64,000 nt of DNA from an uncultured Candidatus Saccharibacteria bacterium (GCA_964407015.1 CAYOTX010000001.1:1708-65707); one strand, 5' to 3'. Numbered from the stretch's first letter, positions 2,936-53,039 are shown. A program made the numbers and translations. The notes: generated by a model not told the origin, from the sequence alone.

Positions 2936-4210
2936 ATGAGTAAGACCGCTAAATTTAAGAAGCGCTTTTATTTCGTGGCGGCGAAATATTTTCGGTATTT
3001 TGCAGATAAAACCCTAAAACGCTGGCAGCCACGCGTGATTGCAATTACTGGTTCGGCCGGAAAGACCACGATGCTAAACCTAATGGAGCACGAAATGGGC
3101 AAAAAAGCGCATTACTCGCACGATGCAAACTCTGCATTTGGGGTGAGTTTTGATATTTTGGGGCTTAAAGGTGTGCGTGGGTCGAAACTACGCTGGATAC
3201 ATCTATTTATAGCAGCACCATTTAAGGCGCTATTTTCGCGCCATAAGGAGAAATTTTATGTAGTGGAAATAGATGGCGAGCGCCCGCACGAGGCCGAGTT
3301 TTTGGCGAAATGGCTGAAGCCAGAAGTGACTATTTGGGTGTCTATTGGCAGGTCGCACGCGGTGCAATTTGAGAAAGAGGTGGAAGAAGGCAGATTTAAG
3401 AACCTAGATGAGGCGATTACGGCGGAATTTGCTAATTTACCACAAAATACCACCAAAAGAGTATATATAGATGCCAATTCTAAGATGATGAAAGCGGCTA
3501 CTAAAGATATTTCTGCTAAGGTGGTGCCGATTAATAAAAATATCATCAAGAAATATGTGGTTTACCCGGATTCTACGGATTTTACCTATGGCGACACCAC
3601 TTTTCATTTCAACCACCCCGAGCCAAAAGACATTGCTTTTAATCTGTTGGTATTGCAAGATTTGATGAAATATCTGAAATTGCCGTTTAAGTCTGATTTT
3701 TCAAACATTAAAATGGCGCCTGGGAGATGCTCGTATTTTAAGGGGAAGAAGGGGATAGATATAGTAGATAGTAGCTATAATGCGCACATGATTTCGATGG
3801 CATCGGTGCTGGATATGGCAAAGCGGATGCATGCCGAGAAAAAGTGGCTAGTGATTGGCGATATCGTAGACCAGGGGTCTACCGAGGCGGAAGAGCATAA
3901 AAAATTAGCACATTTAATCGCCGAAGTCGGGCCAGATAAGGTAATACTGGTAGGCCGGCGGACCAAAAAATATACTGCACCAGAGCTAAAGAAACTTGGC
4001 GTATCGGCAGTGGCGACTTTAGACCCGCGCAAGGCCTTGGAATATATAGAGAAGCGCTCACGCAGTACAGAGACGATTATCTTTAAGGGGAGCCAATACT
4101 TAGAATGGATTATTGAAAAGTTACTAGCCGACCCGAAAGATGCGAAAAAATTATGCCGGCGCGAAAAGGCAGCGGTACAACGGCGCAAAAGTTGGGGGCT
4201 AGATTCGTGA
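2936..4210 (+). CDS. Mur ligase, MurF-like
   Basis: AITGSAGKTT P-loop; DSSYNA and VIGDIVDQG resemble MurF DDSYNA and VLGDMLELG. Confidence 0.8.
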   Translation: MSKTAKFKKRFYFVAAKYFRYFADKTLKRWQPRVIAITGSAGKTTMLNLMEHEMGKKAHYSHDANSAFGVSFDILGLKGVRGSKLRWIHLFIAAPFKALFSRHKEKFYVVEIDGERPHEAEFLAKWLKPEVTIWVSIGRSHAVQFEKEVEEGRFKNLDEAITAEFANLPQNTTKRVYIDANSKMMKAATKDISAKVVPINKNIIKKYVVYPDSTDFTYGDTTFHFNHPEPKDIAFNLLVLQDLMKYLKLPFKSDFSNIKMAPGRCSYFKGKKGIDIVDSSYNAHMISMASVLDMAKRMHAEKKWLVIGDIVDQGSTEAEEHKKLAHLIAEVGPDKVILVGRRTKKYTAPELKKLGVSAVATLDPRKALEYIEKRSRSTETIIFKGSQYLEWIIEKLLADPKDAKKLCRREKAAVQRRKSWGLDS

Positions 4211-4247
4211 TTTTAGGATTTAGGTGCGATAAAAAAGGAGGTAAATA

Positions 4248-4928
4248 ATGGCGGATCTTTATATTATTCATGGGTGGACATATACGGTAGAGCCATGGAA
4301 AAATACTTTGGCTATGCTTCGCGATAACGGCATTAGCGTAAAGATGCTACATGTGCCGGGGCTAACCGAGAGATCCGACAAAGTTTACACGATAGATGAT
4401 TATGTGAAATGGGCGAACGAGAATATTCCAGATGGCGCAGTGGCGCTAGGGCATTCTAACGGGGGGCGGATTTTGCTGAATTTATGCGCAGATAACCCAG
4501 AGAAATTAAAATATCTGATTTTACTAGATGCGGCAGGAGTATACGAGCCATCTGCGCGAAAAAGATTAATAGAAAAAGTGGCGAAAATTGGTAAACCCCT
4601 AAAAAAAGTGCCAATTATAGATAAGGCATTTCACAAGATTACCGGTTCGACAGATTATTCGCGGGCGCCGAAAAATATGAAGCAAACCCTAGCGAATATG
4701 CTAGAATCAGACAAGAATTTAGATTTTAGTAAAGTTACTACTAAAACTTTTGTCCTATGGGGCAAGAAAGATACTACTACACCGCCGCGACAGGCCACTA
4801 CGATGTACGAAAAATTACCCAATGCCAAGCTAAAGTTTTATGCTAACTGGACACACGCACCGTATATTTCTAGCCCAGATGAATTAGCGCGTGCTCTAAC
4901 CGCCTTAATCAAAAGGATTAAGAAGTGA
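4248..4928 (+). CDS. Alpha/beta hydrolase
   Basis: HGW, GHSNGG nucleophile elbow, WGKKD, H-acid-base region near the C-terminus. Confidence 0.85.
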   Translation: MADLYIIHGWTYTVEPWKNTLAMLRDNGISVKMLHVPGLTERSDKVYTIDDYVKWANENIPDGAVALGHSNGGRILLNLCADNPEKLKYLILLDAAGVYEPSARKRLIEKVAKIGKPLKKVPIIDKAFHKITGSTDYSRAPKNMKQTLANMLESDKNLDFSKVTTKTFVLWGKKDTTTPPRQATTMYEKLPNAKLKFYANWTHAPYISSPDELARALTALIKRIKK

Positions 4929-6112
4929 AAAAACATTATTTCTTAGGTTCAGCAGCAAATTATAAGGGGAGATTATGGGCACATACTTTTGCTGTAGGGC
5001 TAGAAAAAGATCGCGGAGCGTTGCAAAGGTTTTTGTCGCAGAAGTACAGTGGCGAAGCAATTTTAACAAAAAATGGAAGATCTGCACTAGCTTTAGCGTT
5101 GAAAGCTTATTTTGAGCCGGGTGATGCGGTAATCGTGAACGGATTTACTTGTTATGCAGTTTATGAAGCGGTGAAAGCTGCTGGGCTAGTGCCGGTATGG
5201 GCGGATATTTCGAGTGGGGATCTAAACTATAATGCCACAACTTTAACCGCCGCTCTCCGGGCGGGTCCTGCCGTCGCAGCTTCCCCCACTGTGCTCGACT
5301 CGCGTCTGCGCGCAGCGGGGGACCCCCCAGCTCCGTCACCCACCCGTATAAAGCCGGTAGGCATCATCATTCAAAACTCGCTTGGTAACTCAGTAGATAT
5401 TGCCGCTATTGAAAAATTCGCCAAGCAGCATAACCTCACAATTATCGAAGACCTAGCGCACTGTGCTGGGGTGAAATATGCGGACGGGCGGGAGGTTGGT
5501 ACGGTGGGGGCGGCCGCGGCTCTATCTTTTGGCAAAGACAAGTCTATAGATACAATTTCTGGCGGGGCGGTGATCCTTCGTGACCCCTGTAAAACGGTAA
5601 TTGAAGCGCCTAGTAAACTTCCGAAAATTTCCGATACTTTAAGGGCGAGATTTTACCCGCTACTAGGTGCGGTAGCGCGAGGGCTATCTTATATTAAGCT
5701 AGGCGGAGCATTTATGCGGTGCCTGGTAAAAATCCACTGGGTAGAGAAGTCGGCTGACAATAAATTAGATCTAGAGCGGAAAATCGCCAAATTTGAAGCT
5801 AGATTAGCCCTAAAACAACTAAAAAATCTGAAGAAATCTGGCGAAGCACCAATACGGGAATTTTGCCTAGTGCGAAACAGAGCAGAAGTACTAAAAAAGC
5901 TGCAAGCTAGAGGCTACTATTTTGGCGGATTTTGGTATGAAAAACCAGTGTCTCCAGAACGATATTATAAAAAAGTGCATTTTCCAGAAGACAAATGCCC
6001 GGTAGCTACAGAAGTTGCTAAAAAAATCATCAATCTACCAACTTACTATAGTGAAAAAGATTTGGAGCCAGCGCGCAGAATCATAGCAGAATATATGGAG
6101 GGTGAAAAATGA
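4925..6112 (+). CDS. DegT/DnrJ/EryC1-family PLP-dependent aminotransferase with an internal GC-rich insertion
   Basis: IIEDLAH, LSFGKDK, C-terminal CPVA..VA..IINLPT; extra segment ALRAGPAVAAS...PSPTR. Confidence 0.85.
   Translation: MKKHYFLGSAANYKGRLWAHTFAVGLEKDRGALQRFLSQKYSGEAILTKNGRSALALALKAYFEPGDAVIVNGFTCYAVYEAVKAAGLVPVWADISSGDLNYNATTLTAALRAGPAVAASPTVLDSRLRAAGDPPAPSPTRIKPVGIIIQNSLGNSVDIAAIEKFAKQHNLTIIEDLAHCAGVKYADGREVGTVGAAAALSFGKDKSIDTISGGAVILRDPCKTVIEAPSKLPKISDTLRARFYPLLGAVARGLSYIKLGGAFMRCLVKIHWVEKSADNKLDLERKIAKFEARLALKQLKNLKKSGEAPIREFCLVRNRAEVLKKLQARGYYFGGFWYEKPVSPERYYKKVHFPEDKCPVATEVAKKIINLPTYYSEKDLEPARRIIAEYMEGEK
5258..5346. repeat. GC-rich inverted-repeat element inside the aminotransferase CDS
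   Basis: Ends cgggcgggt/acccacccg; shares gggtcctgccg, ttccccca, ggggg(a/t)ccccc and ccgtcaccc in the same order with 51684-51767. Confidence 0.7.
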
Positions 6113-7083
6113 ATTGGCAAGAAATAATTAAAAATTTTCCAGAGGCAAACTTTTTACAATCGCCAGCATATGGCAAGATGAATGAATTGCTCGGTGATAA
6201 AGTCATAGAGGAAGATTTCGGAGGAAAAGGACGCGCCCTGATCATAGTGCGAAATGCCAAGCGTGGGCGATACCTAGAAATCCCATGCGGGCCATTGCTA
6301 GATTATAAAGACAAAAAGACGGTAACAGCCGCGTTTGAAAAAATTGCCGAAATCGCTAAAAAAGAGAAGTGCGCATTCGTGCGGGTGCGGCCGCAACTGA
6401 TCAATACTCCAGAAAATTTGCAACTTTTGGCGGATTTGGGGCTGAAAAAATCGCCGATGCATCTAGCCGCGGAACATACAGTAATTATAGATTTGACGAA
6501 GCCAGAAGATGAACTGCTGGCCAATATGCGCCGGCAAACTAGATACGAAGTGCGCCGCGCTGCCAAGCAGGGGATTATGGTGGAAAAATCGCAAAGTGAA
6601 GAAATTTTTAAAGAATTCCGCAAGGTACAGGCTGAGACGGCCAAGCGGCAAGGGTTTGTGCCACCTAATCTGAAGACCCTAATGGCAGAAAGGGAAGCGT
6701 TTGACGATAAGATTGCGATTTATGTAGCGAAGACCGACGATGGCAAGCCAATTGCCTACGGCATGATTATCAAAGACGGCAAAGAAGGGGATTATTATGA
6801 GGCAGCTTCTACGGATTTACATCGTAAAATGCCTGGGGCGTATGCTTTGCTTTGGCAAGCGATGAAAGATTTGAAAGCCGAGGGCTATGAAAGGTTTAAT
6901 CTATGGGGGATTGCGCCGCCAGGGCAGCCAAATCACCGCTATGCCGGGGTGACCACCTTTAAAACAGGGTTTGGTGGCGAAGTGGTAGAATATGTGCCGG
7001 CACACGATATGGTAATTTCGAAAGCCAAGTATTTGAAAAATTGGCTGGTGGAAATAGCACGCAAAAAACGGAGGCATTTGTGA
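6109..7083 (+). CDS. FemAB/FemX-family peptidoglycan peptidyltransferase
   Basis: NFLQS, GPLLDY, RQTRYEVRRA, FNLWGI, FKTGFGG. Confidence 0.9.
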   Translation: MNWQEIIKNFPEANFLQSPAYGKMNELLGDKVIEEDFGGKGRALIIVRNAKRGRYLEIPCGPLLDYKDKKTVTAAFEKIAEIAKKEKCAFVRVRPQLINTPENLQLLADLGLKKSPMHLAAEHTVIIDLTKPEDELLANMRRQTRYEVRRAAKQGIMVEKSQSEEIFKEFRKVQAETAKRQGFVPPNLKTLMAEREAFDDKIAIYVAKTDDGKPIAYGMIIKDGKEGDYYEAASTDLHRKMPGAYALLWQAMKDLKAEGYERFNLWGIAPPGQPNHRYAGVTTFKTGFGGEVVEYVPAHDMVISKAKYLKNWLVEIARKKRRHL

Positions 7084-25046: not shown

Positions 25047-25095
25047 ATTTTTATTTTAACATGTAGCGTGCTATAATCGTAACATTAACAATTTA

Positions 25096-25184
25096 ATATC
25101 AAGAAGGGGCGAGGGAACGGCCTGGTGACCCCCTACCAACCTAGCTAGACCAAGGTGGTAAATCCGACCAGAAAGGAAAGATAT
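25096..25184 (+). promoter_or_regulatory. SAM riboswitch (SAM-I superfamily)
   Basis: ATATCAAGA..GAGGGAACGGCC..TGA.CCCC..CAACC...AAGGTGGTAAATCC...GATAT directly upstream of metK. Confidence 0.9.
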
Positions 25185-26145
25185 GTTCTATAGAACTGCG
25201 GAGAGCGTTTCTCCGAAACACCCAGATAAATTATGTGACCAAATAAGTGATGCGATACTGGATGCGTATTTTGAAAAAGATCCAAATGCGCGCGTAGCGG
25301 CAGAGGCTTGTGGCGGGCACGGCGTAGTGTTTGTAACTGGTGAGATTACATCTGAGGCGGATGTGGATATTCCGGCCATAGTGAAACGAATTGCCGGAGA
25401 TGGCATAGAGGTGCATACCAAAATTGTGAAGCAGTCGCCAGAAATTGCGCAAGGCGTAGATACTGGTGGGGCGGGCGATCAGGGCATAATGATAGGCTAT
25501 GCGTGTGATGAAACGCCGGAAATGTTGCCGCGCGAAGTAGTGCTGGCACGTCGGCTAAACCAGTATATATATGAAAAGTACCCATTTGATGGCAAAACGC
25601 AGATTACAATAGCGCCAGATGTAAGTATTGATTCTATTGTGGCGAGTTTTCAAAATGCACCACGTGAAGAATTAGAGAAATTAGTGCGAGAATTTATAGA
25701 AAAGGAAAAGTTGACTGGGAAGTTAGAACTGCATATTAATCCGGCTGGGGATTGGCAACAAGGTGGCTTTGATGCGGATACGGGTCTGACCGGGCGGAAA
25801 CTAATAGTAGATAACTATGGGCCACGGGTGGCGATAGGTGGAGGATGCTATTCTGGTAAAGATCCATCTAAGGTGGATAGGAGTGCAGCGTATATGGCAC
25901 GGCGAATTGCGGTGAATTATTTAAGAAAACGCAAGGCGCATGAAGTGTTGGTGCGGCTAGCATATGCGATTGGCTATGCTGAACCTTTGGAAAAAACGGT
26001 AATCGTAGATGGTAAAGCTGAGGAAATAGAAGGATACGATCTTACGCCAAATGGAATTATAAAATATTTGGATTTGAAGCGACCAATTTACGAAAAAACT
26101 GCGCGGTGGGGGCATTATGGCGAAGGGTTCGACTGGGATAAATAG
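25183..26145 (+). CDS. metK: S-adenosylmethionine synthetase (compact form)
   Basis: AESVSPKHPDKLCDQISD, GAGDQG, DTGLTGRK, GKDPSKVDRSAAY. Confidence 0.97.
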   Translation: MFYRTAESVSPKHPDKLCDQISDAILDAYFEKDPNARVAAEACGGHGVVFVTGEITSEADVDIPAIVKRIAGDGIEVHTKIVKQSPEIAQGVDTGGAGDQGIMIGYACDETPEMLPREVVLARRLNQYIYEKYPFDGKTQITIAPDVSIDSIVASFQNAPREELEKLVREFIEKEKLTGKLELHINPAGDWQQGGFDADTGLTGRKLIVDNYGPRVAIGGGCYSGKDPSKVDRSAAYMARRIAVNYLRKRKAHEVLVRLAYAIGYAEPLEKTVIVDGKAEEIEGYDLTPNGIIKYLDLKRPIYEKTARWGHYGEGFDWDK

Positions 26146-29852: not shown

Positions 29853-29939
29853 TGGTGGGCGAGGAGGGACTTGAACCCTCACGACCTTGCGATCACAAGA
29901 TTTTGAGTCTAGCGCGTCTACCAGTTCCGCCACTCGCCC
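29853..29939 (-). tRNA. tRNA-Leu(CAA)
   Basis: GGGCGAGTGGCGGAACTGGTAGACGCG...CT-CAA-AA...long variable arm...GTTCAAGTC...CCCACCA. Confidence 0.95.
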
Positions 29940-37477: not shown

Positions 37478-37554
37478 GGCTCCTTCGTCTAGTGGTCCAG
37501 GACGTCTGGTTCTCATCCAGAAAATCGCGGGTTCGACTCCCGCAGGAGTCACCA
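37478..37554 (+). tRNA. tRNA-Glu(CTC)
   Basis: GGCTCCT acceptor stem, TCTGG-TT-CTC-AT-CCAGA anticodon arm, GGTTCGACTCC, ends ACCA. Confidence 0.95.
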
Positions 37555-51090: not shown

Positions 51091-51795
51091 CTATTTCCAA
51101 TAGGCTTTGTGGGGGAGGCGGACGTCTATATACTGGAATTCAGTAATTCCCTGGCCCGATAGATAGCGGAGCATACGGTCGGCATCTTCTACCGAAACGG
51201 CCGTGGGGCGATCTATAAACATTTTTATGTAACCACTGTAACCATCGAGGTAAAAATCTATTTCACGGACGGCGCCGGCCGGTAATACTGCCCTGGTTGG
51301 TTGATAACCAAGCGCACGAAAGTCCACTTCGGCCTGGCCGATATAATCTTTCATGCGACTAGTGATTTTGCCACTGGTGGCGGCAGCATCTTCGTCTACC
51401 ACTTCGATAGTGGGTTGATAGGTAGGCTCTGGCTCTTCTACTATAAGCTGATCCTCCCCTCCCCGAAAGAAAATAAAATATATTGCCGCCAGAATAGCTA
51501 CCAAAACAATAAAACCGAAACTCACGAAAAAAACTCGTAGATGACTTTTGCGCTTATCTTTCTGGCGAGCAAGTTCGCGTTCGTTGGCGGTCTCGAGTTT
51601 TTCCCTTTGTTCGCCGATGGTGCGGCCAGCACGCAAAGTAGATTTGCGGTTTATGCTACGACGAGTTGGCCGCAAAGCAACTTCGGGACGGGTCCTGCCG
51701 GCTTCTTCCCCCAAAAAATTGCGTTGCAATTGTTCTGGGGGTCCCCCTTCAGCCGTCACCCGTCCCGATTTATTTTTCTTTAGAATACCCACCAC
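51091..51795 (-). CDS. FtsQ/DivIB-like protein
   Basis: Position after murG; TM; C-terminal QYIDVR. Confidence 0.65.
   Translation of the reverse strand: MVGILKKNKSGRVTAEGGPPEQLQRNFLGEEAGRTRPEVALRPTRRSINRKSTLRAGRTIGEQREKLETANERELARQKDKRKSHLRVFFVSFGFIVLVAILAAIYFIFFRGGEDQLIVEEPEPTYQPTIEVVDEDAAATSGKITSRMKDYIGQAEVDFRALGYQPTRAVLPAGAVREIDFYLDGYSGYIKMFIDRPTAVSVEDADRMLRYLSGQGITEFQYIDVRLPHKAYWK
51684..51767. repeat. 84-bp inverted-repeat element inside the FtsQ-like CDS
   Basis: 10-bp perfect TIR cgggacgggt/acccgtcccg; homologous blocks with 5258-5346. Confidence 0.7.
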
Positions 51796-51803
51796 AAATT
51801 CCT

Positions 51804-53039
51804 TTACGCTTCTTCCAAAATTATTTCGGCTAGGCGCTTGGCGGCGTCAGAACGAGCTTCTTTGGCGAGGCAATCGGCCATATCGGCGCGGAGGCGTGGA
51901 GATTTAACTAGGTGACGAATTTCTTCCAATAATTTATTAGGGTCAGCCATCATGTCGGCATCTTTGATGACCAGGGCGGCTTTAGCTTGCTCTAATCTCT
52001 CGGCGTTTTTGACCTGGTGACCGCCAGGCAGGCGTTCAAATGGCACTAAAATGGTAGCTTTTTTAAGCGAGGCCATTTCCGCAATAGTAGTAGCGCCGGC
52101 GCGAGAAACTACCACGTCGGCGGCGCCCATTAATTCGTTCATAGTGGTGTTAAATTCCCACATCCTAAAATTGGATTCTAGGTTAGCCTTTTCCCAGTTT
52201 TCATATTTTTTGAGATCGACCATATTTTCGTAATGTTTGCGACCGGCAACCAAGCCCACAGAAGTAAATTTTAATAATTCTGGTAAGATTTGGCGAGTGG
52301 CCTCATTGAGGTTTTCTGAACCTTGGGAGCCGCCAGTAATTACCACTAAAGGTTTTTCGGCATTGAAAGAAAAGGCTTTTTTGAGCGAAAGCTGCTTGGC
52401 GGGACTGACCGGCTTGAATTCTGAACCAACTGGTATACCAGTCCAAACGTAGTTAGGGTGTTTTTCTAAAATATCCTCAGTGAGCGGCATACCAAAAGCG
52501 ACTTTTTTAGCTTTCCGCATAAGTAAGCGATTAGCTAGGCCTGCTACTACATCAGATTCGTGGATAATGTAAGGGATACGAAAAAGGCGCGCAATGAGGC
52601 CGACTGGCAAGCAAACATAGCCGCCTTTGAGAAAAATAATATCAGGACGGGAAGATTTTTTGATAAGCCGGAAAAATGCGGTAAAAATACCAAAAACAAA
52701 ACCGAAGAAGCCAATAACATTGCCAAAGATTAAATCTTTTAGCGTGATATCTAGATGTACGAAATAATCTTTAAAAGACCAACCCGAATAACGATGGAAT
52801 TTCCCTGCCGGGATGCGGCGCACGCGAATGTATGGGCCCTTGCCGCGGTGTTCGGATTTGTTTTCTTCGCCCCAAGAAACACCGATTTCGGTGGTGAGTT
52901 TGGTGACGTTTTTATAATATTTGAAATCAGTCCAAAATTCTACACCTATACGAGGTTTTTGACTGAGAATTTCACGAACTACGGCGACCGCTGGAGTGAT
53001 GTGCCCCCCGGATCCCCCGCCGACTACTAATATCTTCAT
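51804..53039 (-). CDS. murG: UDP-GlcNAc:lipid I GlcNAc transferase
   Basis: GGGSGGHITP, GGYVCLP, HESD, GGSQGS, SRAGA. Confidence 0.95.
   Translation of the reverse strand: MKILVVGGGSGGHITPAVAVVREILSQKPRIGVEFWTDFKYYKNVTKLTTEIGVSWGEENKSEHRGKGPYIRVRRIPAGKFHRYSGWSFKDYFVHLDITLKDLIFGNVIGFFGFVFGIFTAFFRLIKKSSRPDIIFLKGGYVCLPVGLIARLFRIPYIIHESDVVAGLANRLLMRKAKKVAFGMPLTEDILEKHPNYVWTGIPVGSEFKPVSPAKQLSLKKAFSFNAEKPLVVITGGSQGSENLNEATRQILPELLKFTSVGLVAGRKHYENMVDLKKYENWEKANLESNFRMWEFNTTMNELMGAADVVVSRAGATTIAEMASLKKATILVPFERLPGGHQVKNAERLEQAKAALVIKDADMMADPNKLLEEIRHLVKSPRLRADMADCLAKEARSDAAKRLAEIILEEA

Follow-up and report, generated by a model that had tools for sequence, protein, structure and literature searches.

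The window analysed here, a stretch of 64,000 nucleotides, comes from an 828-kb genome assembly of 55 contigs (42.7% G+C) that probably represents a Candidatus Nanosyncoccus, one of the Saccharibacteria of ruminant guts. A cell-wall cluster of Mur-ligase-like, alpha/beta hydrolase, DegT and FemAB-family genes occupies positions 2936-7083, and its gene order is kept in metagenomic relatives. The DegT gene of this cluster (Table 1) encodes a protein whose PF01041 match spreads 179 residues over 150 profile positions, and within it lies an 89-nt segment, 5258-5346, with 76% G+C, as against 44% for the gene without the segment. An earlier reading of the sequence alone (the sequence-only reading) had described this as a GC-rich segment of about 89 bp, bounded by a near-perfect 9-bp inverted repeat and adding roughly 29 atypical residues without breaking the frame. 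The description proved accurate: the segment and its paired arms are real, the reading frame is open across it, the residue count is exact, and the ends lie within 4 nt of those of the covariance-model match described below (C1:6961-7057 in contig coordinates). The whole repeat copy, hereafter copy 1, codes for approximately residues 111-142 of the protein, and the 29 residues that are surplus relative to empty alleles are RAGPAVAASPTVLDSRLRAAGDPPAPSPT.

Table 1. Coordinates of features in the window.
Feature	Position	Strand	Remarks
DegT/DnrJ/EryC1/StrS-family PLP aminotransferase, 395 aa, mosaic allele	4925..6112	+	Pfam PF01041, E 2e-29
Hairpin repeat copy 1 (subtype A apex)	5254..5350	+	in frame in the DegT gene; covariance-model match, E 4e-16
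Outer stem 5' arm, CGGGCGGGT	5258..5266	+	pairs with 5338-5346 at 8 of 9 positions; conserved CCT bulge next to it
Outer stem 3' arm, ACCCACCCG	5338..5346	+	pairs with 5258-5266 at 8 of 9 positions
SAM riboswitch	25093..25187	+	Rfam RF00162, 55.6 bits
tRNA gene	29856..29939	-	Rfam
tRNA gene	37478..37551	+	Rfam
234-codon membrane-protein ORF, downstream of murG	51091..51795	-	from the ORF list; shorter form without Pfam match
Hairpin repeat copy 2, short A/T-rich apex (like subtype B)	51681..51770	+	covariance model E 1.3e-12; nhmmer E 1.2e-12
murG (glycosyltransferase family 28), upstream neighbour of copy 2	51804..53039	-	Pfam PF04101, PF03033

The insert in DegT proteins

Modelling of the DegT protein with AlphaFold, a check proposed along with the sequence-only reading, gave a mean pLDDT of 78.7 and a pTM of 0.83, and placed insert residues 117-139 in a low-confidence loop (pLDDT <50) between the helix at 104-113 and the strand at 144-150. 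Alignment with orthologues, likewise proposed, showed the 29-residue insertion to be missing from close relatives: at the protein level it is absent from 8 of the 11 congeneric DegT orthologues, including the closest one (79% identity), and metagenomic homologues at 88-89% identity are also insert-free. The genome with the closest DegT among those sampled, that of Ca. N. alces (G004), contains no copy of the repeat detected by the covariance model.

Some orthologues do hold material at this position. In congener G006, a decayed GC-rich insert that the covariance model no longer detects lies at the same loop (L002, ~1830-1950), while only the first 15 nt of the repeat, CGGACGGGTCCTGCC, are left at the site in G013 (L005, ~1490-1510); both traces are probably remnants of older repeat copies. 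The DegT proteins of L007 and L009 have extra residues at the insert site, as seen at the protein level, and an orthologue of 71% identity has a related insert at the same site. The sequence-only reading had regarded sharing of the segment by distant orthologues as evidence against an insertion, and this 71%-identical protein touches on that point. However, because the orthologues at 88-89% identity are empty and other alleles hold a different hairpin family, we read the DegT site as a hot spot that has been occupied repeatedly and reshuffled by recombination, and not as the seat of an ancestral segment.

Alleles of the DegT loop

Among metagenomic homologues with 75-94% identity, the DegT loop is found in at least four allelic states: it holds the present repeat (or a related form, as in the 71%-identical orthologue), a second hairpin family in either of two orientations, a short linker, or nothing. 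The second hairpin family, unrelated to the first, is seen in metagenomic alleles P0010 and P0022 (L178:570-800 and L179:570-815). Its 68-nt core is an exact reverse complement between the two DegT allele types, and of its outer stem only the inner part has flipped along with the core, a pattern that indicates inversion of the core through recombination between the stem arms.

The window allele can be compared column by column with the empty allele P0011 and the element-bearing allele P0002. It agrees with them at 94/96 and 84/95 positions, respectively, in the N-terminal columns 1-100; at 4/15 and 15/15 in the left insert flank (columns 101-115); at 85/99 and 99/100 to the right of the insert (columns 161-260); and at 80/81 and 74/81 in the C-terminal columns 331-412. 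The central tract, which holds the repeat copy, and the two gene ends have different alleles as their nearest relatives. Because the allele is a mosaic of this kind, copy 1 most likely came into the gene on a homologous-recombination tract, and with arrival by this route, the presence of the repeat does not follow phylogeny. A recombination tract fits a naturally competent lineage (PMC10633639).

A repeat family within the genome

Profile searches, with an nhmmer profile built from the genome's own copies and a covariance model built from ten full copies, took up the suggestion that further copies be sought genome-wide and yielded 10 full and 2 decayed copies. The full copies have E values of 1e-12 to 2e-21 with nhmmer (1.8e-19 for copy 1) and 1e-12 to 2e-19 with the covariance model. 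The sequence-only reading had noticed that four blocks recur in the same order at 51684-51767, and this holds for GGGTCCTGCCG, CCCCC, GGGGGWCCCC and CCGTCACCC. Single short blocks are marginal by themselves, with two matches appearing in 7-8 of 100 shuffles of the window, but as a whole unit the second segment is a true relative, one of the ten full copies with nhmmer E values of 1e-12 to 2e-21.

That second segment, copy 2 (C1:53388-53477), lies between murG and the gene that follows, and is antisense to the genes around it. It makes up codons 9-38 of the downstream membrane-protein ORF if translation starts at the GTG at 51795, and belongs to the 5' leader if the alternative TTG start at 51666 is used. 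Four full copies are in frame within genes, namely those for DegT, MnmA, Tgt and MurB. Comparison with solved structures shows about 30 extra residues exactly at the repeat in both Tgt and MurB, the case of MnmA being less clean, and the Tgt insert is missing in five congeners with 82-89% Tgt identity. One decayed copy is in a P-type ATPase gene and the other in a FemAB-like gene. The other full copies lie between genes or at gene starts: between murG and the next gene, between prfA and prmC, between thrS and a miaA-like gene, and upstream of an iscU-like gene.

Two of these junctions have features of their own. At the copy downstream of thrS (C12:20601-20690), the miaA-like ORF has no ordinary start codon near its conserved N-terminus, and its sole in-frame ATG is in the repeat apex; as judged from the sequence, the repeat may supply the start codon. 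The junction of the genes for RF1 and PrmC is occupied both in this genome (G000, C10:27373-27466) and in a congener (L020, G006:C13:15587-15671), with the copies in opposite orientations relative to the genes.

Architecture of the hairpin

The repeat core is about 80-93 nt long (90 nt in subtype A), and every copy in the genome folds as one long hairpin with a z score of -3.4 to -7.3 on either strand; as RNA, copy 1 folds at -44.8 kcal/mol (z -3.35). On the C-rich strand, the outer stem reads GRCGGGT / ACCCGYC and usually has 3-5 further pairs. Inward of it come a conserved 3-nt CCT bulge and a second, covarying stem. The hairpin also has an asymmetric internal loop, with AGTTT opposite TCCCCCCAG, followed by a CCCCC/GGGGG helix and an exchangeable apex that in this genome is either a 29-nt GC-rich or a 24-nt A/T-rich hairpin. 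At 9 of the 24 predicted pairs both sides have changed with pairing kept, and the genome copies show no variation in the CCT bulge, the C5/G5 helix or the loops. In a search of the whole window, Rfam 15 gave no gathering-score match to the repeat, and what both copies matched at E values up to 10 was noise. The same search identified the SAM riboswitch and the two tRNA genes listed in Table 1.

Placement in genes and reading frames

Twenty-seven copies were sampled from 21 further congeners, together with flanks of 1.5 kb. Of these, about 13 are deep within long ORFs and the remainder at gene junctions, and across the copies as a whole, approximately half are in frame in conserved genes, at variable loops, with the rest at junctions between operon genes. 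Where ORFs overlap at a junction copy, each belongs to a gene of its own (Tdk/Tmk, EF-P/FtsJ, RF1/PrmC and Map/FtsA), which rules out that such copies mark split genes.

Both frames without stops are in use among antisense intragenic copies, and two or more frames among sense copies. The third antisense frame has a TGA in 28 of 36 copies and is not used by intragenic copies. With several frames and both orientations in use, only an open frame is needed, and no particular peptide. The core length is a multiple of three in 13 of 16 intragenic and 10 of 19 intergenic copies, a difference that amounts to a trend only (p 0.15). The combination of varied frames and intact ORFs argues that the repeat is read through as a tolerated loop, and against its excision or bypass.

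Strand bias

Thirty-eight copies have a clear context. Of these, 31 run antisense to the genes that hold or flank them (p 1e-4), and in 29 the C-rich strand coincides with the strand that is G-rich locally (p 0.002); the sample is small, the copies are partly non-independent, with some on shared contigs and some orthologous, and the 3-kb GC skew used here is a rough proxy for replication strand. Cross-tabulation gives 22 antisense copies at positive and 9 at negative skew, and 7 sense copies at positive and none at negative skew. Among the 31 antisense copies, 22 are associated with a C-rich coding strand, more than the 36% expected; copies concentrate in genes with such a coding strand, and the C-rich strand of the repeat is then the template strand. 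The GC skew of the genome is itself very strong, with contig means of up to +/-0.28.

The antisense bias and the skew bias have to be treated as two effects. A pure replication rule would produce mostly sense copies, because 64% of the long ORFs in the genome have a G-rich coding strand, and a pure transcription rule would produce mostly negative signed skew. Avoidance of stop codons was considered as a cause of the antisense bias and ruled out, since in most copies the C-rich strand has no stop in any of its frames. The copy strands along one complete Solirubrobacterales chromosome, read from coordinates with an unmapped origin, show no obvious replichore switch. Taken as a whole, the strand bias hints that copies insert into single-stranded DNA while it is exposed, or survive on it.

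Distribution among genomes

The covariance model detects 1-21 copies in 25 of 61 congener genomes, and more than 150 copies in congeners altogether. Copies are gained and lost between close relatives: in an orthologous gene of ~900 codons, G013 and G017 share an insertion site (L016/L017) at which the copies have different apexes and lengths (81 vs 87 nt), and G017 has a second copy 0.6 kb from the shared site that is missing in G013. Among other Patescibacteria, at least 9 of 300 genomes, in 8 genera, have 1-3 copies, with few candidates scored per genome.

When all GTDB species were scanned with a pattern, matches were numerous in Saccharibacteria and, contrary to expectation, also in Solirubrobacterales and other metagenome-assembled genomes (MAGs). 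Scored with the covariance model, which here provides lower bounds, Solirubrobacterales genomes have at least 5-17 copies each, a deltaproteobacterial MAG at least 42, a Chloroflexota MAG at least 20 and a Microgenomates MAG at least 9, and a Streptomyces control genome has none. Since a pattern this GC-rich is estimated to have a few hundred chance matches over all high-G+C genomes in the collection, the case for a cross-phylum family rests on features that the search did not enforce, on the multi-copy state and on taxonomic concentration. The MAG copies share the full architecture, including the CACCCGC 3' end and the complementarity of the second stem, neither of which was part of the search pattern; a pattern match in Streptomyces has neither. 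The pattern and the model behind the high-G+C copies were both derived from this Saccharibacteria genome, and homology rests on both. One Solirubrobacterales locus codes for a Wzy_C O-antigen-ligase-like protein with two in-frame copies in opposite orientation. A single match in a viral contig was set aside, as it lacks the 3' end and resembles chance similarity in a GC-rich coding region.

Actinomycetota are the host phylum of cultivated Saccharibacteria. The high G+C content of the repeat and its look-alikes in Actinomycetota point to a horizontal acquisition, on sequence grounds. We found no published description of the repeat in the literature on palindromic repeats and MITEs of Saccharibacteria and Patescibacteria, and the family is apparently undescribed so far.

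Candidates for a mobilising activity

The Y1 transposase domain Y1_Tnp (PF01797) is absent from all 25 carrier genomes, this one included, and the 6 of 61 congeners that have PF01797 are all repeat-free. Reverse-transcriptase domains (RVT_1) are found in 21 of 25 carriers vs 22 of 36 non-carriers (Fisher p 0.09), and one carrier with 14 copies (G012) has no reverse transcriptase. Reverse-transcriptase genes of ~380-400 codons are present in 43 of 61 congeners, with this genome's at C47:282-863, and in G021 one of them lies ~1 kb from a repeat copy. Paired copies at one deltaproteobacterial and one Solirubrobacterales locus have no transposase or parent element between them, only ordinary genes: a transporter gene, and an O-antigen ligase gene with two in-frame copies.

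The sequence-only reading had also raised a target duplication, and none was seen at the DegT site. Nor did the Tgt and L016/L017 sites reveal a target-site duplication, and no microhomology was seen at any of the three; the sequences compared are 80-90% identical, and a duplication of 1-3 nt could escape notice at this distance. Because the flanking linkers are hypervariable, the boundaries of the inserts cannot be fixed to the base. The mobility of the repeat is inferred from its distribution, as no enzyme that could mobilise it came to light and no insertion event was observed between nearly identical genomes.

Interpretation

We consider it likely that the segment in the DegT gene represents one copy of a hairpin-forming DNA repeat that is dispersed and non-autonomous, and either selfish or neutral. 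Such an insert would be transcribed and translated with its host protein as a disordered surface loop rich in Pro, Gly, Ala and Arg, as the intact frames suggest, and it would be kept since it is harmless. New copies would be rare, each produced by an activity that acts in trans and recognises its target as a folded single strand; this type of activity is suggested by the covarying stems, the conserved unpaired bases, and the double strand bias to the template strand of lagging-strand genes. From strain to strain, the repeat would spread mainly through homologous recombination of the flanking gene segment.

A wider and more tentative version of this proposal, which we think less probable than not on present comparisons, is that the copies in Saccharibacteria, Solirubrobacterales, Chloroflexota, the deltaproteobacterial MAG and Microgenomates belong to one pan-bacterial class of coding-tolerated hairpins. 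The conserved asymmetric fold, with its CCT bulge, C-rich internal loop and CCCCC/GGGGG helix, might then be the substrate of a widely distributed putative single-stranded-DNA activity at replication forks and transcription bubbles, and the repeat might be passed between actinobacterial hosts and their Saccharibacteria epibionts and then from strain to strain via natural transformation.

Covarying stems and conserved loops are also what would be expected of a structured RNA module that acts in cis and is selected in the transcript, for instance for processing, for stabilisation or as a hairpin bound by a protein, and whose intragenic copies are by-products. The antisense orientation of most copies, which stop-codon avoidance does not explain, and the position of many copies exactly between adjoining operon genes would suit this explanation. 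However, a module serving the transcript would have to be reconciled with a presence in only 25 of 61 congeners, in 1-21 copies and with no fixed gene association, with the approximately half of copies that are within unrelated coding regions, and with the occurrence of both orientations at the RF1-PrmC junction in two genomes. The missing Rfam match and the independent GC-skew bias also speak against it, and we regard an RNA module as unlikely.

More doubtful still is that the repeat is an element of the REP/REPIN or IS200/IS605 type, moved as single-stranded DNA by an HUH Y1 transposase (RAYT or TnpA) encoded in the genome. Its hairpin form, covarying stems and conserved extrahelical bases, the fact that neither terminal inverted repeats of the cut-and-paste type nor a target duplication was seen, and an orientation bias compatible with a lagging-strand template would all be in keeping with this mode of transfer, but PF01797 is not found in any carrier, and no transposase lies between the paired copies at the two loci. 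The repeat also has no GTAG tag, and at 80-93 nt it exceeds the 20-40 nt of REPs (PMC3733652).

The host proteins would be free of the loop if the repeat were removed or skipped in RNA or in translation, through intron-like excision or programmed ribosomal bypass. GC-rich palindromic inserts are bypassed by ribosomes in yeast mitochondria, and the hairpin described here is very stable. But the frame is open in every intragenic copy examined, the core length is divisible by three in 13 of 16 such copies, the antisense intragenic copies are confined to the two frames without stops, and no copy divides a gene into two frames. As there is also no match to the ribozyme or intron families of Rfam, we judge excision or bypass very improbable. 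That the segment is an ordinary lineage-specific protein loop resembling 51684-51767 by chance, as the marginal standing of each short block within the window might have allowed, is refuted by the ten full copies in the genome with E values down to 2e-21 and the more than 150 in congeners, by the contrast of 76% with 44% G+C, and by the missing segment in orthologues of 88-89% identity.

Saccharibacteria genomes are among the smallest and most streamlined in bacteria. Yet foreign-looking loops of 30 residues are present here in essential enzymes that build the cell wall or modify tRNA. [quoted passage not shown] The repeat could serve as a marker of gene flow between epibionts and hosts, and the positions of its copies as a natural map of the loops in which conserved enzymes tolerate an insertion. 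For annotators and structure predictors it carries a warning, as GC-rich islands of this kind are not sequencing errors or frameshifts. Its strand bias, together with the lack of a known transposase, makes it a tractable case for the study of how transposase-less palindromic repeats spread.

Comparison with known systems

The sequence-only reading had proposed a coding-tolerated MITE or REP family in this lineage, by analogy with the palindromic elements of Rickettsia. A coding-tolerated palindromic family does exist in the lineage, in 25 of 61 congeners, but it does not conform to a strict definition of either MITE or REP, and the same architecture is multi-copy in Solirubrobacterales and in other phyla.

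Among described systems, the repeat comes nearest in its behaviour to the Rickettsia palindromic elements RPE-1 to RPE-10 (Ogata et al. 2000), as they are summarised in PMC10969869 and PMC3733652. These have in common with the present repeat that they are dispersed palindromic repeats of about 100 nt (about 100-150 nt for the RPE kind) in a small, host-dependent genome, that they are often in frame in unrelated housekeeping genes at fold-compatible positions, and that no transposase has been identified for them. The Saccharibacteria repeat differs in that it belongs to another phylum, is GC-rich in an AT-rich genome and has a marked strand bias; it also uses several frames and both orientations with no conserved peptide, and has look-alikes in several phyla. 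Neither the DegT protein nor the repeat-encoded peptides matched any of the NCBIfam repeat-element families, a comparison with RPEs at the peptide level. Since no sequence or peptide relationship was found in the NCBIfam and Rfam searches, we file the repeat with the RPE kind and not in an RPE family.

REPs and REPINs, and the CGTC- and GTAG-tagged palindromes, are likewise hairpins with variable, covarying stems that are sometimes intragenic (PMC3733652). CGTC repeats also occur without a dedicated transposase (PMC3733652), and the outer stem of the present repeat often ends in ..CCCGTC(C/G)A. REPs are 20-40 nt long with 8-9-bp stems and are mostly extragenic, and GTAG REPs travel with RAYT genes (PMC3733652), whereas the Saccharibacteria repeat is an 80-93-nt, three-helix hairpin with no GTAG tag that is intragenic in about half of its copies and whose carriers have no Y1 transposase. 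In contrast to MITEs, it yielded no terminal inverted repeats matching an insertion sequence, no target-site duplication and no parent element. With MITEs and the ERIC and BOX repeats, it nevertheless shares its small, non-autonomous, structured and multi-copy character and the occasional in-frame fusion to an ORF (PMC10969869).
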